A stretch of DNA of 63,811 nt, filler included. It is 14 parts of 14 records of this genome, joined end to end, with 100 filler letters (N's around TTAATTAATTAA, not from the genome) between each part and the next. Parts side by side here need not be neighbours in the genome. Positions count along the whole stretch, not along the records: positions 11,082 to 17,395 come from SRR15195285_4858; 13 more parts are not named here. One strand, given 5' to 3'. The notes beneath the pieces were generated by a model, which was not told the DNA's origin, did no database searches, and saw nothing but the letters and a program-made list of their open reading frames with translations. The number at the start of each line of letters is the position of its first letter. The stretch's first letter is position 1. A program made the position numbers and the translations under genes. Of the stretch, positions 3,184 to 17,495 are shown piece by piece.

Positions 3184-3283
3184 NNNNNNNNNNNNNNNNN
3201 NNNNNNNNNNNNNNNNNNNNNNNNNNNTTAATTAATTAANNNNNNNNNNNNNNNNNNNNNNNNNNNNNNNNNNNNNNNNNNNN
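3184..3283. other. Artificial contig linker
   Basis: N44-TTAATTAATTAA-N44, giving stops in all six frames. Confidence 0.99.
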
Positions 3284-7246: not shown

Positions 7247-7346
7247 NNNNNNNNNNNNNNNNNNNNNNNNNNNNNNNNNNNNNNNNNNNNTTAATTAATT
7301 AANNNNNNNNNNNNNNNNNNNNNNNNNNNNNNNNNNNNNNNNNNNN
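7247..7346. other. Artificial contig linker
   Basis: N44-TTAATTAATTAA-N44. Confidence 0.99.
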
Positions 7347-10981: not shown

Positions 10982-11081
10982 NNNNNNNNNNNNNNNNNNN
11001 NNNNNNNNNNNNNNNNNNNNNNNNNTTAATTAATTAANNNNNNNNNNNNNNNNNNNNNNNNNNNNNNNNNNNNNNNNNNNN
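10982..11081. other. Artificial contig linker
   Basis: N44-TTAATTAATTAA-N44. Confidence 0.99.
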
Positions 11082-11549
11082 CCCAGACAATAGATGCGAT
11101 CAGAATCAAAATCATAATGAACCTCAATCGGGACGTGACGCGACGGCGGTCGCGCGGGCGGCCCAGTCGATCGATTCGTCGCGCGACGACACAATCATTG
11201 TTGTATACCCGCCGCTACGTGTACCCGATCGGTACGCTACAGTCGACTGTACCGATGTACGGTACATGTCGATGCATCCGGCACGCGTGCGCGCGCACAC
11301 CGCCGCGTCGCGCGGTCCCGCGCGGCGCGACGCGTACCGGCCGCGGCCGCGGTATGTACCGCAGGAACTCGCTGCACTGCCTGTGCACCACCCGCACCCC
11401 ACCGCTCTAGACTATAGTGGCTGTGAGCATTGGCTGCTGGCGAGTAGGGCGATGTTTATCAGAGCGAGGGCGGTTGCTGTGTACATTGGAGGAAACACAT
11501 GATTGCATTTTGTATAGGTAGAGGACACAGCGTCAATCGGTATTGAAAT

Positions 11550-13101
11550 ATGAACAACCGCCCCACAGCCAACGAATTTGAGGATCTGCTGGACGATATT
11601 CTGCCAGAGACTCCACGTGGTGGAGCCGAGGCGGACACCTTGCCAGGTGGCGTTGCGTACCGAGCGCCGGGTGATGGTGACGGAAGCGCTTCAGAGGTTC
11701 CTGCAGAGCACGCTCTAGAACCTTTCCAGCTGGCACCACCGAACGAACATGCCGCATCATCGCACAGCGATGCAAAGCAGGTGTTTATCTACGTGAACGT
11801 CTTTGCTGTCTCAGACATCGATACGGTGAATCAGACATTCAGAGCTAATTTCTTTATGCGGGCTTGCTGGGTGGAGTCGGAGCTGGGGAAATCGATCCAT
11901 CCCGAGAAAGCGTGGTCTGCACACCAGCAGGGCGACGACCTGGAGCAGTTCTGCATGGCGGAAGACGTATGGGAGCCGCGGCTGATGTTCGTAAATGCAG
12001 TAGAACCGGTTGAAAAGACCCAAGTGGAACTACGACCATGCCCATGGCGTCAGAGCCCACGTGGCGAACCAGTCCTGGAGTGGCGTGCGCATTGTCGCGG
12101 CATATTCCGCGAACGTTTCGAGTTGAAGTCGTTCCCATTCGACGTTCAGTCGCTGACTATCATGTTGTCGACACATCGTAGTCGTAGCCAGGTGTGGCTG
12201 CGAGAGGACAGCTTTAACAACACAAAAGGTGTCGTGCGAAAAGAGTTTACGGTCATGGCCGAGTTTGAGCTGGACGATCGCCCATACTTCGAGACATTGA
12301 TTGAGAATGACGTCGTACACGGTGCAGGCGCCGCCGGACGCTTTTCGTTGCTCCGCATGTATTTCGTGGCGGAAAGGCGGCACCAGTACTACCTCGTCAA
12401 TATCTGCCTTCCAATCTTCATGATCACTGCCATGGTTGCGTCAACGTTTGCTGTTCCACCTTCTCAGATCGCATCACGCCTCGGTGCGTGCGAGTATTTT
12501 CGTTTGCGTGCCGCTACGTACTCTGAACACGCGACAGCTTTCCTTGTGGCCAAGACAATTTGTGTTCAAGCAAGACAGTCTACTTGCAAATGGACTGGCA
12601 TTCCATGAAGCATACGCATTTTTCCAGTTGTCTCTGTGTGTGACAATATTGTTCTGTTCCGCTATTCTGCGTTTTGGCTGTTGATAATTATGTGCGTGGG
12701 TCTCATTGTTGTCAATCGCAGGGCTATCATTTACGCTCGTCCTCTCCTCTGTTGCCTTTAAGTTTATGGTGGCGCAAGATCTGCCACGTGTCAACTACAT
12801 GACGCTGTGTGACGTGTACTCGCTTGCAAATTTCGTCTTTCTTGCTTTTGTGGTTTTTCAAACTTTGGCGCTGGGGATACTGTGTGCTACGCAACCCAAC
12901 GAACTAAGGAGTAGTGCAGGAGACTGTCCAGCAACGGGCGATATTGGTGGTTTGGACGCGTTCGATCGAGAGAGCCAAAAGGTGTTGGGCATTGGCTTTG
13001 CACTGCTCAACACGGTGATGGTGTTGCGCGCGCTATTTGCTTTCGTTCGCGAGCAAGAGAAGGCTGAGCGGCTGAGGGAAGGCTACTGGCAGCAGAAGTA
13101 G
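11550..13101 (+). CDS. Cys-less (Pro-loop, GLIC/ELIC-like) pentameric ligand-gated ion channel subunit
   Basis: SDIDTVNQTFRANF, WEPRLMFVN, Pro-loop ELKSFPFDVQSL, pre-M1 ERRHQYY, M2 RLGLSFTLVLSSVAF and LPRVNYMTLCD. Exons 11550-12483 and 12722-13101 (intron gtgcgt...cgcag). Confidence 0.92.
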
Positions 13102-13327
13102 TGCTCTTTGGAATGCATGCTCATTAGAATGCATGCTCAGCTTTGCTCTGAGCATCACCACAGAAAGAGCTAGCATTGGGCGAGATTTTGATGTACTGCA
13201 CGCTCATCTGCACGGTGCATCTCAACGTTTCGATGCGGGTATAATGATATATGTCAGTTCAAGGGCCAGACCCGTCATTTGTCTGCCGCAAGAACGCAGG
13301 TGAGCAGGAGTCATCTGTTTGTGGCCT

Positions 13328-16300
13328 CTATATTCGACCACCAGCTAGCAATTGCTGTACAGCATCCTTTGAAGAGGCCAGTCGTCCAAACAGCGCCACT
13401 GCGCGCTGCTGTCCTTCACGGCTACGCCCCGCCGGCGTCAACACGTGCGTATTCAGATCATGCACGGCTAGCAGCTCGAGCATGTGATACTGTCCTTGGC
13501 GCGACACCTTCACTGCTGACTCGAAGGCCTCCTCCGCATCAGAAACTGACCCCTGCGTGGCTAGAATGCGGCCACGGCAGCGGTAAGCAAGTGAATTAAC
13601 CCATAGATTAGAGTCACCACCGATAGACGAGTCTGGGTCGAGGCCTTTCTTCACATATGTGAGCGCTTTCTTCGGCTGGCCGAGCAGCTCCAGCATTAAA
13701 GCGCCCCAGGTGGGCGAACAATGCGCGCAGAAGTTGCCGTGGTGATGACCACGGCCGCCATCGTGGCCTGGAGTCAGCTGCCCAAAGGATGACAACGTAT
13801 CAGCGTCTGGCATGTCGTCCACGTTGCCACCTGAAGGCAGGCCTTTAGACAACAGCACCCACATCTCCTTGAAGTGCCACTCAAGGCTCTTCACCTCGCA
13901 GAAGCCTCCTTCCGCATCTTCAGCACGTGCCCGGAGCCACGGCATCTTCTCAGCCCACCGGTCTAGAGTATCTCCGACTCGCGACCAGTCGCACCCAAGA
14001 CTACGCAGGAGCTCAAGACCCTCCTCGTGTCGGTTGCAGAGGTATAGGCCTTGCGGGAGGTGGCAGGCTGCCCACACCATATCCATTGAGCCGTCTGCAC
14101 TTGGGGCTTGAATGAATCCTTGCAGGCATTCTAGCGTCTTGTCCATTGTTTTGCCTGCAGCTGAGAGGTTGCCCCAGTGTGCGAAAAGCGGAAATCCATG
14201 ACCCCATCCACTTAGCATTGGGTCAAATTGGATGCATTCGTAGATTCTTTCATGCATCGACAATTCGTACGTCTCGGCCGCCTCGATGAGCAGCGCACCT
14301 TTTTCGCCAAATATTCCCTCGTAATTGAAGTCTGGACACCGCGCGCAGCAATCTAGCATAACCCAATTGAAACATACGGCCATATTCAGATAAATCGCAC
14401 GATTTTCAGTCCCAGGAAGTTCGTTGCTAGCGACATCATTGCAGAAGTTGGCCATTTTTATACACTGTTTGCCAAGAGCGATCTCCGAGCCCGAGACTCC
14501 GTTGTGCTCGACGAGCAGCTTGGGGTAGAACTCGATCATGATCATGACCGTGAACACAGCCTCGGCACTCGTGGAAGCTGCACCACTTTCAATCAAAGCA
14601 TCCAGTCTTGGCTTGTAGACCGGTAGATCAACGGGATTGAACATTTTGATGATTAAGATGATGTTGGAACACATCACCTGGTCACGTTCGAACGTGTTCT
14701 CGGCCTGCTCGAGCGCTGCCACACAAGCTATCAACTGCTCGCGCCCCGAGCCCGTCCCCGACGTGCCACGCAGAGACTTAGCAGCTGCAGACCAGCGTAA
14801 ACCAGCTGCCCACCAGTCACCATTTTCCTGCGCGCGCTCTGCAAGCTGCTGTACACGCTCAGGGCCCAGAAAGCGCGCGCAAGCCACTGGCAGCGCGTCC
14901 TGCTGTCCTGTGAAGTCGTCTAGCCAAGTAATTGCTTGCTCATCTTCGTCCCATTCGTCTGTAGCCCAGGCACAGCGGACATGGTGTTCCATTTCAGTGA
15001 AGACATATTTGCTCAACTTGTCCACCGTCGCCATCTCCCGGTCCCATCCACACAGCCCGTCAATCGAGATTCCTGACGCTCTTAGTGTTGCTTCATGCTT
15101 CCGAATCATTGTACTCGGAACTCTGGCTTGTTTTGGGTTTGTTAAATCGGTTGACGAGCACACTAGGCCCTGCGCCTGCAATTTCTCTGCTTCTTCTGAT
15201 CCAGTCCCTAGCGCACGAAAGGAGATGTTTGAGCTCGTGAACGTTATTAACGCCAAAGTTTTTGATAACGTCACTCCAACGACACAGGATACTCGCGAGC
15301 TCGTGCCGCACTTTTCGAACAGAGCTCTGAGCTCATCAACTCCCAAGGTGCCACCTCGATTGTAGCCACTGACATCGCACAAAACCGTTGCATCTCTCAT
15401 AGCCACATCGCGAACCGGTCGCTGCTCCCGGAACAGTTCAATCATGTTCCGGTGAGCTGCTTGCAGCTCTTCGACTGTATGCATGGACATGCTGAAGTCG
15501 AGCAAGATATCGTGTAAAGAAGGTTGGTCCAGGGGTGGAAGCACGAGGTTACGATCAATCAGCATTTTTAGCCAACGGCGAATCTGTTTGAGTGCTATTG
15601 GTTTACCACTCCCGTGTTGTGCTTGAAACATGAATGCGAGAGCCTCCAGTGGCACGGACGAGTCCTCAGGTGCAAGTCCGAAGCACTTGAACAGGCTTCG
15701 TGCTCCTTCTGCGTGCGGGCCCTGAATCGATCTCAAGCTCGTTTTGATTAGGTTGTCCTCTGCCGATCGCATCTCGCCGCCAGCATCGAATTCGTCTCGA
15801 ATCATCTCCAGCACTCCGTCCCAATCTCCTTGCAACGACATATCCTTCAGTAGGCGGCCTGCGATGTTGACTGTCAAAGGAAGCCGTTTGCAGAGCCGAA
15901 CAATTTCGACCGCGGCCTGTGGAACTTCATCAGTCGTCTCTAAGCCAGCTGAAGCAAGCAACATCTTTTGCGCGTCTTCTTCAGATGGCATGCCTATCTC
16001 AACCAGCTCACAGGAATCAATGGAACCCTTCACTCGGCTAGAAATGAGCACGCGAGAGGTCGTGTCTGCATCTATGAAATTGAACGGCGTCTCGTGCGCT
16101 GGATCCCACAGGTCGTCTAGTACAAGTATGATCTCTTTACCCGCCATCGCCTCGGTCAGCATCTTTTGAGTTTCTTCTTCGCTACTCGTACCTAGTACAC
16201 TGCCAGTAAGCTGCATATACAGGCTTCTCTGACACTTTTCGAGCAAGGGTGCGTGGCCTAATGTCACCCAGACTACATAATTGAAGCGCGAGCGGATGTC

Positions 16301-17395
16301 GGGAGTGCGACATAACCAAGCACTCGTAGTTGTCTTTCCAACGCCACCTGTGCCACCAAAAACACATTGTCAACGTCACGCGTCAGTAGTGGCTGAGCTC
16401 TCTGCGTTGCAAAACCGCAGATTAGTGTTTGGGAAGCGCTCACCTATGCCGTAAAACCCCACTTTCGGAGACGAAGTCTTGCAAACAACATCCACGAGAG
16501 TCTTCATGGAGTCAGAGACTCGGATTTCAGTCGGAATTTGAGGAACAGCTGACGGTAGTTTGGCCTGCCCATCGCTGGGTGCGTCAGCTGCTGGCTGATC
16601 AGTAGGCTCCTCTTTGCGCAATCTCTCCAGCTCTTCACGCATAGAGTCGACTGAGAACAGCCCATCTTCGTCTTCTTCAATTTCTTCCTCTTCAGTGGGC
16701 ACAGCTAATTTAATTTGCGCAAGGACATTTTTGACGTTGGCAGAAAACGAATCGTCATTCAGAAGGGGAGTCCACAATGCTCCAGCTGTGAGGATTCCAA
16801 GCCATCCTGTCGCTCGCCAGCCAGATCGTGGATCTTCCAACATGATTGGAATCACAGGTACGCCTGACTGTTTAGCAAATTTCAGTTCCAGCCTGCAATT
16901 TTCACTGTCTTGATAAGCACTGGACATGAAACAGAGCACCACTGCAGCGCCTTGAACCCCTTCAGCCATGCTATCATAGATATCGCGCTGCATACCACCG
17001 TCGATATCCATCCAGCATTTCACTCCAGCAGCTTGCAGATCCTTGCGAGCCCTCGAGACGAGGTCCTGGTGATCCCACTGGTACGATAGCATGGCCCACT
17101 TGTCTCCAACAATGACTGTCTTCTTTACCGCGCCGGAGCTATTTTTCGCACGCCCCCGCTTTTTCTTGAGCAATGCTTCCAGATCCTCTTGAGGCTCTTC
17201 AAGCTCTTCTGCACCGCCGAAATGTGGACGGCCTTTGTGCGACTTCTGCGCAGTGGACGCTTGAACCACGTTCTTAGTTGTACCTGTTGGCGCTGTACGC
17301 GTCGGTCCACGACGGAAGGGGCTCGATACTGGAGGCTGACCAGGATCCATATGCGCTGACTCCATCGCAGACGAAGCGCCGACAATCAGCTCGAT
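13328..17395 (-). CDS. TIR - NB-ARC (STAND) - TPR-like NLR-type protein, possibly 5' partial
   Basis: TIR (AMLSYQWDHQ...CWMDI...SENCRLELKFA). Removing intron 16348-16443 restores P-loop GIGGVGKTT. Walker B LVLDDLWD, RNBS-B VLISSR, CKRLPL, LHD and a helical TPR-like C-terminus follow. An ATG is at 17365 but the frame is open to the contig edge. Confidence 0.9.
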
Positions 17396-17495
17396 NNNNN
17401 NNNNNNNNNNNNNNNNNNNNNNNNNNNNNNNNNNNNNNNTTAATTAATTAANNNNNNNNNNNNNNNNNNNNNNNNNNNNNNNNNNNNNNNNNNNN
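17396..17495. other. Artificial contig linker
   Basis: N44-TTAATTAATTAA-N44. Confidence 0.99.

Follow-up and report, generated by a model that had tools for sequence, protein, structure and literature searches.

A lineage-specific in-frame insert, probably translated, next to the winged helix of an NLR-like TIR-NB-ARC protein from a marine protist

Results

Organization of the locus

The DNA stretch analyzed in this work (the window; 63,811 nucleotides including filler letters) was composed of separate contigs joined by linkers. One of these contigs, with its limit at 17395 set by a linker at 17396, carries on the minus strand a gene consisting of a TIR exon, an intron and a long second exon (Table 1). 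The sole neighbour of this gene on the contig is a Cys-loop channel gene. The TIR exon is still open where the contig stops, so the gene lacks its 5′ end here. A Glu residue in the CRLEL context of the TIR domain is predicted from the sequence to occupy the catalytic position. The two exons are separated by a 96-nt spliceosomal intron, whose splicing we infer from the sequence: the intron splits the P-loop and contains a stop codon in frame, and the product of its removal aligns without gaps with the homologs, e.g. with P0027 (...CGFWGSGGIGKTTTSAWLCR).

Table 1 Features of the TIR-NB-ARC gene and its insert (positions in the window)
Feature	Position	Strand	Remarks
TIR exon and N-terminal region	16443-17395	-	ORF; ends ...KVGFYGIG; open to contig end at 17395
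TIR_2 (PF13676)	16829-17092	-	residues 102-189 of the translation; Pfam E-value 7.7e-18, 65.6 bits (cut-off 28)
Spliceosomal intron, 96 nt (predicted splicing)	16347-16442	-	GTGAGC...CACAG; in-frame TGA; splits the P-loop; excision gives KVGFYGIGGVGKTTTSAWLCR
NB-ARC module (nucleotide-binding domain, helical domain, winged helix)	15416-16346	-	ends ...NMIELFREQRP
In-frame insert, 357 nt (119 aa)	15059-15415	-	VRDVAMRD...GISID, residues 319-437; site empty in relatives
RRM_1 sub-threshold match	15227-15337	-	DELRALFEKCGTSSRVSCVVGVTLSKTLALITFTSSN; profile positions 13-50 of 70
C-terminal helical domain, family-conserved	13331-15058	-	starts GLCGWDRE; stop codon 13328-13330

The second exon lies within an open reading frame of 13328-16369, translated from stop to stop as P0001 (1013 amino acids). 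The NB-ARC domain (PF00931) was matched at residues 5-193 with a Pfam E-value of 4.2e-20 (72.5 bits, cut-off 23.5), and its motifs comprise Walker A (GIGGVGKTT, after splicing), Walker B (ILVLDDLWD) and an LHD motif of the MHD type at residues 285-287. Sequence matches in PDB included ZAR1 (3.9e-11), ADR2, NRG1-type proteins, MLA13, NRC1 and Apaf-1 (2.7e-5). Homology is regained in the C-terminal domain at residues 433-453 and extends to about residue 1010; one weak TPR-like repeat was detected near its end (window ~13502-13591; TPR_2, TPR_14 and TPR_1 at 15-19 bits, sub-threshold), and a PDB sequence search with the domain gave no match at E ≤ 1. These matches support an NLR-like STAND protein composed of TIR, NB-ARC and a helical C-terminal domain; a host of NLR type had been proposed for this locus in an initial sequence-only reading, and the TIR_2 and NB-ARC scores together with the PDB matches to NLRs and Apaf-1 bear it out.

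The insert and its absence from relatives

In P0001 the conserved end of the winged helix ('...FRxxRP'), which reads ELFREQRP up to residue 318, is followed by VRDVAMRDATVLCDVSGYNRGG...ISID (residues 319-437), and then by the C-terminal domain, which begins with a conserved 'GWD' (GLCGWDRE...KYV...EHHV). The sequence-only reading had noticed the residues between ELFREQRP and GWDRE of an NLR-like ORF and placed them right after the winged helix/MHD region; both statements hold for the minus-strand ORF, in which the LHD motif lies upstream and the match to the NBD-HD1-WHD core of Apaf-1 stops about five residues before the insert (profile position 317 in P0152 numbering, approximately residue 314 of P0001). 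The limits then given, 15110-15410, fall inside the segment but leave out about 50 bases at its 3′ side.

The site was compared in the best 149 non-self matches of an exhaustive phmmer search with the whole protein, 74 of which match on both flanks. Stretches of homology upstream of the insert end at residues 314-325. In 71 of the 74 spanning homologs at most 26 residues (mostly 0-15) are present where the query has 98-157, and in two others (P0059 and P0076) the site is crossed directly in a MAFFT alignment, so that 73 of 74 lack the insert. In the closest homolog among the phmmer matches (P0003, 41% identity) residue 318 of the query is joined to residue 438 with no gap. The single exception is P0132, a paralog-like protein in which RPVRD is likewise present but is followed at the site by about 55 unrelated residues of low complexity. 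The segment is therefore not a constant part of all homologs, a case that the sequence-only reading had also considered.

The same insert was found in the same place in P0152 (1016 amino acids, 90% identical overall), which is encoded on a separate metagenome contig. It is thus barely credible that the insert is an assembly or amplification chimera absent from the organism, although the window is made of 14 short contigs, several of which end in homopolymer or ACAG-repeat runs typical of amplified single-cell or binned assemblies: P0152 comes from a separate assembly and carries the insert at the identical site, seven public runs contain at least half of the sampled words of 13300-16400, and one RNA-library contig (15066-15216) runs within the insert. 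Neither a second copy of the insert in the window nor flanking direct or inverted repeats of note were found as signs of a mobile element.

Coding character of the insert

The reading frame of the host is free of stop codons throughout the 357 nt, and the five other frames contain 9, 4, 11, 1 and 4 stops. In 20000 shuffles such an open frame arose with a probability of 0.0014, and the length of the insert is a multiple of three. In P0152 the insert is likewise open and free of indels, and differs at 17 of 119 residues, as compared with 81 of 887 in the rest of the protein (Fisher p 0.097); 17 or more changes were found in 6.1% of 651 other windows of 119 amino acids. Conservative changes (BLOSUM62 ≥ 0) make up 13 of the 17 in the insert and 58 of the 81 elsewhere, while 49.5% is expected for random single-base non-synonymous changes (binomial p 0.022 for the insert). 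In contrast, the few intron-derived codons at the starts of both ORFs (P0001 and P0152) differ strongly and include a 3-codon indel. The pattern of substitutions and the open frame suggest that the insert is probably translated.

The codon composition of the insert is atypical. Its GC content at the three codon positions is flat (0.50/0.52/0.48, versus 0.61/0.43/0.58 in the rest of the ORF), and its codon-usage score is 0.07 per codon. Of 658 other windows of the gene 99.4% score higher, as do 97.5% of 239 windows taken from 12 further long ORFs, and the insert does no better than the two verified introns of the contig when these are read in their best frame (0.08 and 0.035). Because of this composition we have weighed whether the insert, in whole or in some in-frame part, could be an intron left unspliced, or an exitron, that is open by chance, with a mature protein that lacks it as the homologs do. 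Exitrons are introns inside coding exons, with a length that is a multiple of three and with coding potential, and the insert is similar in being in-frame, stop-free and of 3n length, in having homologs without it, and in differing in composition from the surrounding exon. Its excision would give a seamless alignment with the homologs, as does that of the 96-nt intron; the break in homology begins exactly at a GT (15415); the verified introns, of 96 and 237 nt, bring a length of 240-357 nt within range; the residues of P0132 at the site may represent a read-through intron; and P0153 has an ORF whose first Met lies within the insert.

Splice signals were judged by the two verified introns of the contig only, whose donors are G|GTGAGC and G|GTGCGT. 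By this standard, in no case among 94 in-frame GT/GC...AG pairs around the insert is a donor like those of the verified introns combined with a pyrimidine-rich acceptor: the donor at the break is GTTCGC, with T at +3, the 3′ break lacks an AG, and the 3′ part of the insert is purine-rich and has no pyrimidine tract. RNA-library contigs from four runs cover 13200-17390 thinly and cross 15066-15216 without a joint; they decide nothing on the splicing of the insert, because the sure intron at 16347-16442 is covered unspliced as well. A search of JGI metagenome contigs with an alignment of the segment yielded 530 pattern matches, of which 0 were confirmed. The poor splice signals, the low joint chance of an open frame and a length divisible by three (~0.0014 x 1/3), and the open, indel-free state with mostly conservative changes in the 90%-identical P0152 make an intron or exitron an improbable explanation.

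Resemblance to the RNA recognition motif

At E ≤ 10 Pfam yielded a single family, RRM_1 (PF00076), for the insert and for its P0152 variant alike, with scores of 13.3-14.2 bits (E 0.042-0.081) that do not reach the gathering score of 20.7. The match covers helix 1, strand 2 and strand 3 only, that is 38 of the 70 profile positions. Set against the RRM consensus, DELRALFEKCG fits helix 1 and RVSCVV fits strand 2; KTLALITF fits RNP1, with K, A, I and the last F kept and both central aromatics replaced by Leu; and SEEAEKLQAQG could be helix 2, although about 11 extra residues separate it from the RNP1 candidate. RNP2 and strand 1 are not aligned, and no convincing RNP2 was recognized by reading the insert sequence, TVLCDV being a candidate.

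Structure prediction followed by a Foldseek comparison had been proposed in the sequence-only reading as a check of an RRM. AlphaFold2 gave no usable model (pLDDT 36.9 for a construct of 235 amino acids and 41.0 for one of 125 amino acids with a 2-row alignment). DSSP assigned to these low-confidence models a helix, three strands and then helices. A Foldseek search of PDB with the model of pLDDT 41.0 had no match at E ≤ 0.001. The matches listed, which include no RRM, all had E > 0.3 (kinases, ribosomal proteins and others) and are meaningless at such model confidence. A PDB sequence search with the insert gave one spurious match at E 1.2, a profile search gave none at E ≤ 10, and the ESM Atlas gave no usable match. 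Word-index protein searches with the insert alone found only the protein itself among longer proteins and nothing among proteins of similar length; the exhaustive library was searched with the whole protein only, so weak relatives of the insert could be missed.

The insert thus weakly resembles the helix 1-strand 2-strand 3 part of an RRM. The RRM-like domain of the sequence-only reading was not confirmed, as the RRM_1 score stays below the cut-off, no fold is predicted with confidence and neither RNP2 nor strand 1 is aligned. We regard it as rather unlikely that the insert is a genuine RRM-derived integrated domain of the ferredoxin-like beta-alpha-beta-beta-alpha-beta fold, whose role would be to sense or bait either RNA or those factors of pathogens or viruses that have RNA-binding proteins as their targets. 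Such a domain would agree with the sole Pfam family, the fit of the individual elements, the order of predicted helices and strands, and the lineage-specific occurrence, which integrated domains share; the partial sub-threshold match, the low pLDDT values, the empty PDB profile search, the lack of an independent host protein related to the insert in the word-index searches, and the atypical codon composition argue against it.

Comparison with the NB-ARC start

Residues 339-412 of the insert are colinear with residues 5-90 of the same protein (GGTLGV/GGTGGV, VVGVTL/VVWVTL, LGTGSEE/LGTSSEE, DLTNP/DLWDP), with 26 identities in 86 columns and a BLASTP E-value of 0.009 in 894 residues. The Smith-Waterman score of 49 for the insert against the NB-ARC start was matched by 3 of 1000 shuffles. 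This would be expected if the insert had arisen long ago as a copy of the NB-ARC start of the same gene, from P-loop to Walker B, that was placed in the hinge and has since degenerated. Yet one of ten control windows of P0001 (with the reciprocal window left out) scores 45 against the remainder, an HMM of the NB-ARC start built from 114 family sequences gives the insert -1.2 bits, a score equalled by 54% of 2000 shuffles, and the Pfam NB-ARC profile does not match the insert. At the DNA level the two segments gave a Smith-Waterman p of 0.79 and a third-position identity of 0.32. We hold an origin from the NB-ARC start to be highly improbable. A recent internal duplication was rejected on the absence of DNA similarity and the family HMM score.

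Discussion

We lean towards the view that the insert is a translated, lineage-specific, in-frame segment of about 119 residues, and that it occupies the hinge of a marine-protist TIR-NB-ARC STAND protein, where the winged helix meets a C-terminal sensor domain that is helical and TPR-like. Judging from its family, the host would switch like other NLR/Apaf-1-type proteins: the C-terminal domain would keep the ADP-bound NB-ARC closed, a trigger would lead to nucleotide exchange and oligomerisation, and the clustered TIR domains would signal. The insert would sit on the loop that serves as a pivot when the winged helix and the sensor domain move against each other, and because of this location it is likely to be surface-exposed and tolerated. 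It appears to consist of a small alpha/beta core (residues ~340-405) followed by a less structured tail.

The core of the host is that of the Apaf-1/CED-4 STAND ATPases, with the NBD-HD1-WHD part of Apaf-1 (1z6t, E 2.7e-5, chain 154-465) matched up to where the insert begins. In Apaf-1 the winged helix is followed by a second helical domain, HD2, to which the C-terminal helical domain described here may be likened. The host differs from Apaf-1 in having TIR in place of CARD, a C-terminal domain unrelated in sequence, and 119 extra residues at the hinge. The order of modules is the same as in the plant TNP proteins (TIR-NBARC-TPR, formerly XTNX), in which helical, TPR-like repeats replace LRRs (PMC9806590). 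The likeness concerns the module order. The TPR matches are sub-threshold here, and the parts of PMC9806590 consulted report no TNP orthologs in the algae examined and mention no hinge insert in TNPs.

The HMA fold, like that of the RRM, is beta-alpha-beta-beta-alpha-beta. Receptors of the integrated-decoy type often occur in a pair with a helper NLR. In plant NLRs with integrated domains, such as RGA5 and Pik-1 with HMA and RRS1 with WRKY, the extra modules bind effectors, according to the parts of PMC9528084 and PMC7747998 consulted. The host resembles them as an NB-ARC receptor with an extra module that is missing from related receptors (here from 73 of 74 spanning homologs). It differs from them in the position of the module, which is preceded by the winged helix and followed by a helical domain that is not an LRR, and the plant modules are clear homologs of free-standing host proteins, whereas the protist insert has no detectable relative. 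The mention of RRM in the consulted part of PMC7747998 is a cited title on RRM transcription factors that interact with NLRs and concerns no integrated RRM. As the organism is a marine protist and not a plant, the integrated-decoy model from plants serves as an analogy only, and an integrated decoy in the protein described here would be possible but unsupported. In its most far-reaching form, which we consider distinctly unlikely, a heterotrophic marine protist related to Picozoa would have independently evolved an integrated-domain NLR, with a degenerate RRM-like module that has lost its stacking aromatics placed at the winged-helix/sensor hinge of a TIR-NB-ARC-TPR-like receptor as bait for viral or parasite factors targeting RNA-binding proteins.

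Conclusions

An exitron, or a loop that has expanded neutrally, would make the case an ordinary one and mainly a warning about intron-like segments in ORF-based eukaryotic protein sets derived from single-cell or metagenome assemblies. NLR-like STAND receptors are widespread, but the documented cases of integrated bait domains come for the most part from land plants. A lineage-specific module at the hinge of a receptor from a protist would offer a natural experiment on the ways in which switches of this kind put up with insertions or make use of them, and it would be a hint that receptor evolution in general makes use of decoy integration. Should the insert prove to be an integrated decoy, the principle would extend beyond land plants, with the bait placed at the mechanical hinge of the switch.

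Organization of the host gene

The 14 short contigs making up the 63,811-base window are joined by linkers of the form N44-TTAATTAATTAA-N44, and no feature is valid across them. Several contig ends carry homopolymer C or G runs, CTG repeats or ACAG repeats. The gene of interest comprises two open reading frames, encoding TIR and NB-ARC modules. The Walker A motif of NB-ARC is split by a 96-nt GT-AG intron, removal of which restores GIGGVGKTT; the intron-free product KVGFYGIGGVGKTTTSAWLCR aligns gap-free to homologs, e.g. ...CGFWGSGGIGKTTTSAWLCR, and from this alignment of the joined product we infer that the intron is spliced. The NB-ARC orf (P0001) also contains the Walker B motif ILVLDDLWD and an MHD-type LHD motif (residues 285-287).

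The nearest solved structures by sequence are plant NLRs (ZAR1, 3.9e-11; ADR2, MLA13 and NRC1) and Apaf-1 (2.7e-5), the Apaf-1 match stopping about five residues ahead of the insertion analyzed here. The C-terminal 570 residues of P0001 are conserved in the family; all their TPR matches are sub-threshold and a PDB sequence search with them found no relative. By module order, not by orthology, the architecture matches plant TNP (TIR-NBARC-TPR) as outlined in an excerpt of PMC9806590. Family members P0004, P0010 and P0055 have TIR_2 and NB-ARC in common, with three TIR_2 stretches ahead of NB-ARC in P0010; homologs reach 1791 aa and their N-terminal architecture varies.

Some of the region 13300-16400 is present in 19 of the 23 listed marine or seawater metagenome rows, with at least half of its sampled words in seven of them, and the cluster of the closest homolog includes a EukProt entry labelled Picozoa sp. 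Together these matches point to a small marine protist of the Picozoa kind as the probable host organism.

Features of the contig carrying the gene of interest, and linkers of the window
Feature	Position in window	Strand	Description
Linkers	3184-3283, 7247-7346, 10982-11081, 17396-17495 and nine further sites
Contig carrying the gene of interest	11082-17395
Cys-loop (pentameric ligand-gated) channel gene	11547-13101	+	convergent neighbour; Neur_chan_LBD 29 bits (E 9e-07), weak Neur_chan_memb
Intron of Cys-loop channel gene	about 12485-12721	+	237 nt, GTGCGT...CGCAG
NB-ARC ORF (P0001)	13328-16369	-	1013 aa stop-to-stop; NB-ARC 72.5 bits
Intron	16347-16442	-	96 nt, GTGAGC...CACAG; joins TIR and NB-ARC ORFs
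TIR ORF	16376-17395	-	open to contig end; TIR_2 65.6 bits

A lineage-specific insertion behind the winged helix

The sequence-only reading had placed an apparently inserted domain after the winged helix of this protein; the strings that it quoted are all present in P0001, and the insertion, hereafter the segment, proved real, with limits at 15059-15415. With phmmer, run exhaustively against 1.84 billion representatives, we obtained 6309 hits at E ≤ 0.001 (214 at E ≤ 1e-30), of which the best 149 non-self hits were analyzed. Matched stretches flank the segment on both sides in 74 of these 149, and 71 of the 74 have at most 26 residues (mostly 0-15) opposite 98-157 of the query. Alignment by MAFFT of 18 chosen homologs and P0152, a homolog 90% identical overall from a separate metagenome contig, gave the family pattern ...LHDI..D....AHRR.V..FR..RP, followed by 0-16 residues and GGWD, with 119 residues between RP and GLCGWD in the query. 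P0059 and P0076 cross the site directly in this alignment, and the extra residues behind their larger gaps sit further on. In P0003, the closest homolog among those analyzed (41% identity, 897 aa), query residue 318 joins 438 with zero gap. Since homologs cross the site directly, the insertion is, on sequence comparison, real and lineage-specific. The presence of the same insertion in P0152 makes an assembly chimera unlikely. Neither repeats of the segment within the window nor terminal repeats or a target-site duplication were found.

P0132 is the only spanning homolog with a long filler at the site, about 55 residues unrelated to the segment by BLASTP. It is a 318-aa protein in which the K/R/S-rich filler lies within residues about 45-108, likewise after RPVRD, and it has non-homologous sequence at both ORF ends.

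Coding character of the segment

The main alternative is that the segment is an untranslated intron or exitron, since its removal makes the alignment to homologs seamless, as with the verified intron; we regard this as very improbable. In favour of an intron, the segment begins with GT and its GC content is flat over the codon positions (0.50/0.52/0.48 vs 0.61/0.43/0.58 in the rest). In codon-usage log-odds, with 12 other long ORFs as the training set, it scores 0.07 per codon, under 99.4% of the gene's 658 other windows and 97.5% of 239 training windows, near the best frame of the two verified introns (0.08 and 0.035). The filler of P0132 looks like translated non-coding sequence and may mark an intron position at the same junction in a paralog. 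Against an intron, frame 0 has zero stops over 119 codons (9, 4, 11, 1 and 4 in the other five; P = 0.0014 by shuffling), the length is divisible by three, AG is missing at the 3′ break and the 3′ third is purine-rich; inspection of the 94 in-frame GT/GC...AG pairs in and near it revealed none that combines a verified-like donor with a pyrimidine tract.

The strongest point against an intron is that P0152 reads through the segment with no indel. The two proteins differ at 17 of 119 positions in the segment and 81 of 887 elsewhere (Fisher p 0.097), a count matched or exceeded by 6.1% of 651 other windows. Conservative changes make up 13 of the 17, similar to 58 of the 81; non-synonymous single-base changes placed at random in this DNA would be conservative in 49.5% of cases (binomial p 0.022). 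The few codons of intron origin with which the two ORFs begin (QCVF---GG vs MTIFFFVCG) are far more divergent and contain an indel. Given the general indel:substitution ratio, neutral DNA with so many substitutions is expected to gain indels, and the comparison of the pair thus favours constraint on the segment. RNA-library contigs span 15066-15216 without a joint, in runs that also cover the certain 96-nt intron unspliced (contigs from two runs), so this coverage counts neither for nor against splicing of the segment. In P0153, a third haplotype (92% identical), the ORF begins at a Met inside the segment (MIRKHEATL..., window about 15101).

Possible origins of the segment

Pfam searches with the segment, a shorter cut and the P0152 variant each gave RRM_1 as the sole family at E ≤ 10, with a sub-threshold match (13.3-14.2 bits vs a cut-off of 20.7; E 0.042-0.081) spanning only profile positions 13-50 of 70; at 86% identity, the segment and the P0152 variant do not give independent matches. 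By eye, DELRALFEKCG, RVSCVV and KTLALITF resemble the pattern of helix 1, strand 2 and RNP1, with Leu in place of the RNP1 aromatics, and SEEAEKLQAQG could be helix 2 after about 11 extra residues; strand 1/RNP2 is absent from the alignment. AlphaFold2 models had pLDDT of 36.9 (235-aa construct) and 41.0 (125-aa segment with a single relative), and Foldseek with the latter returned nothing meaningful. No relative of the segment was found by PDB sequence and profile searches, in the ESM Atlas, by two word-index protein searches or in JGI metagenome contigs.

An unexplained lead is a weak resemblance to the gene's own P-loop-to-Walker B region. Residues 339-412 (15137-15358) align weakly but colinearly with residues 5-90 (16100-16357, minus strand), with 26 identities in 86 columns (BLASTP E 0.009 in 894 residues) and a Smith-Waterman score of 49, reached by 3 of 1000 shuffles. 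However, a score of 45 is attained by one of ten control windows, an HMM built from the family for this region gives the segment -1.2 bits (equalled by 54% of 2000 shuffles), and DNA similarity is lacking (p 0.79; third-position identity 0.32). This borderline self-match shows how easily beta-alpha-beta patterns match, which tempers the RRM hit. That the segment derives from an RRM and acts as a sensor or bait, as proposed from the sequence, is in our view unlikely.

Discussion

Proteins of this kind are ADP/ATP switches in which the C-terminal domain restrains NB-ARC, and TIR domains signal once oligomerised. By analogy the host protein would be such a switch, its NB-ARC held by the C-terminal domain and its TIR output following oligomerisation. 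The segment lies in the linker between the LHD-bearing winged helix and the sensor domain, a hinge that shifts when Apaf-1 and ZAR1 are activated. It is read most economically as a surface insertion tolerated at this hinge, which would be under purifying selection comparable to that on the rest of the protein. It may conceivably provide an extra surface for recognition.

Among plant NLRs, integrated domains are amply documented. They sit at or near the C-terminus in the cases covered by excerpts of PMC9528084 and PMC7747998; the RRM mention checked, in the latter excerpt, is a cited title on RRM transcription factors interacting with NLRs, not an integrated RRM. A search for integrated domains of protist NB-ARC/NLR proteins gave plant work only, among the matches listed, which hints weakly that protist cases are undescribed. 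Proof of an exitron or of a loop expansion would make the segment ordinary, and proof of a true integrated domain would make it notable.
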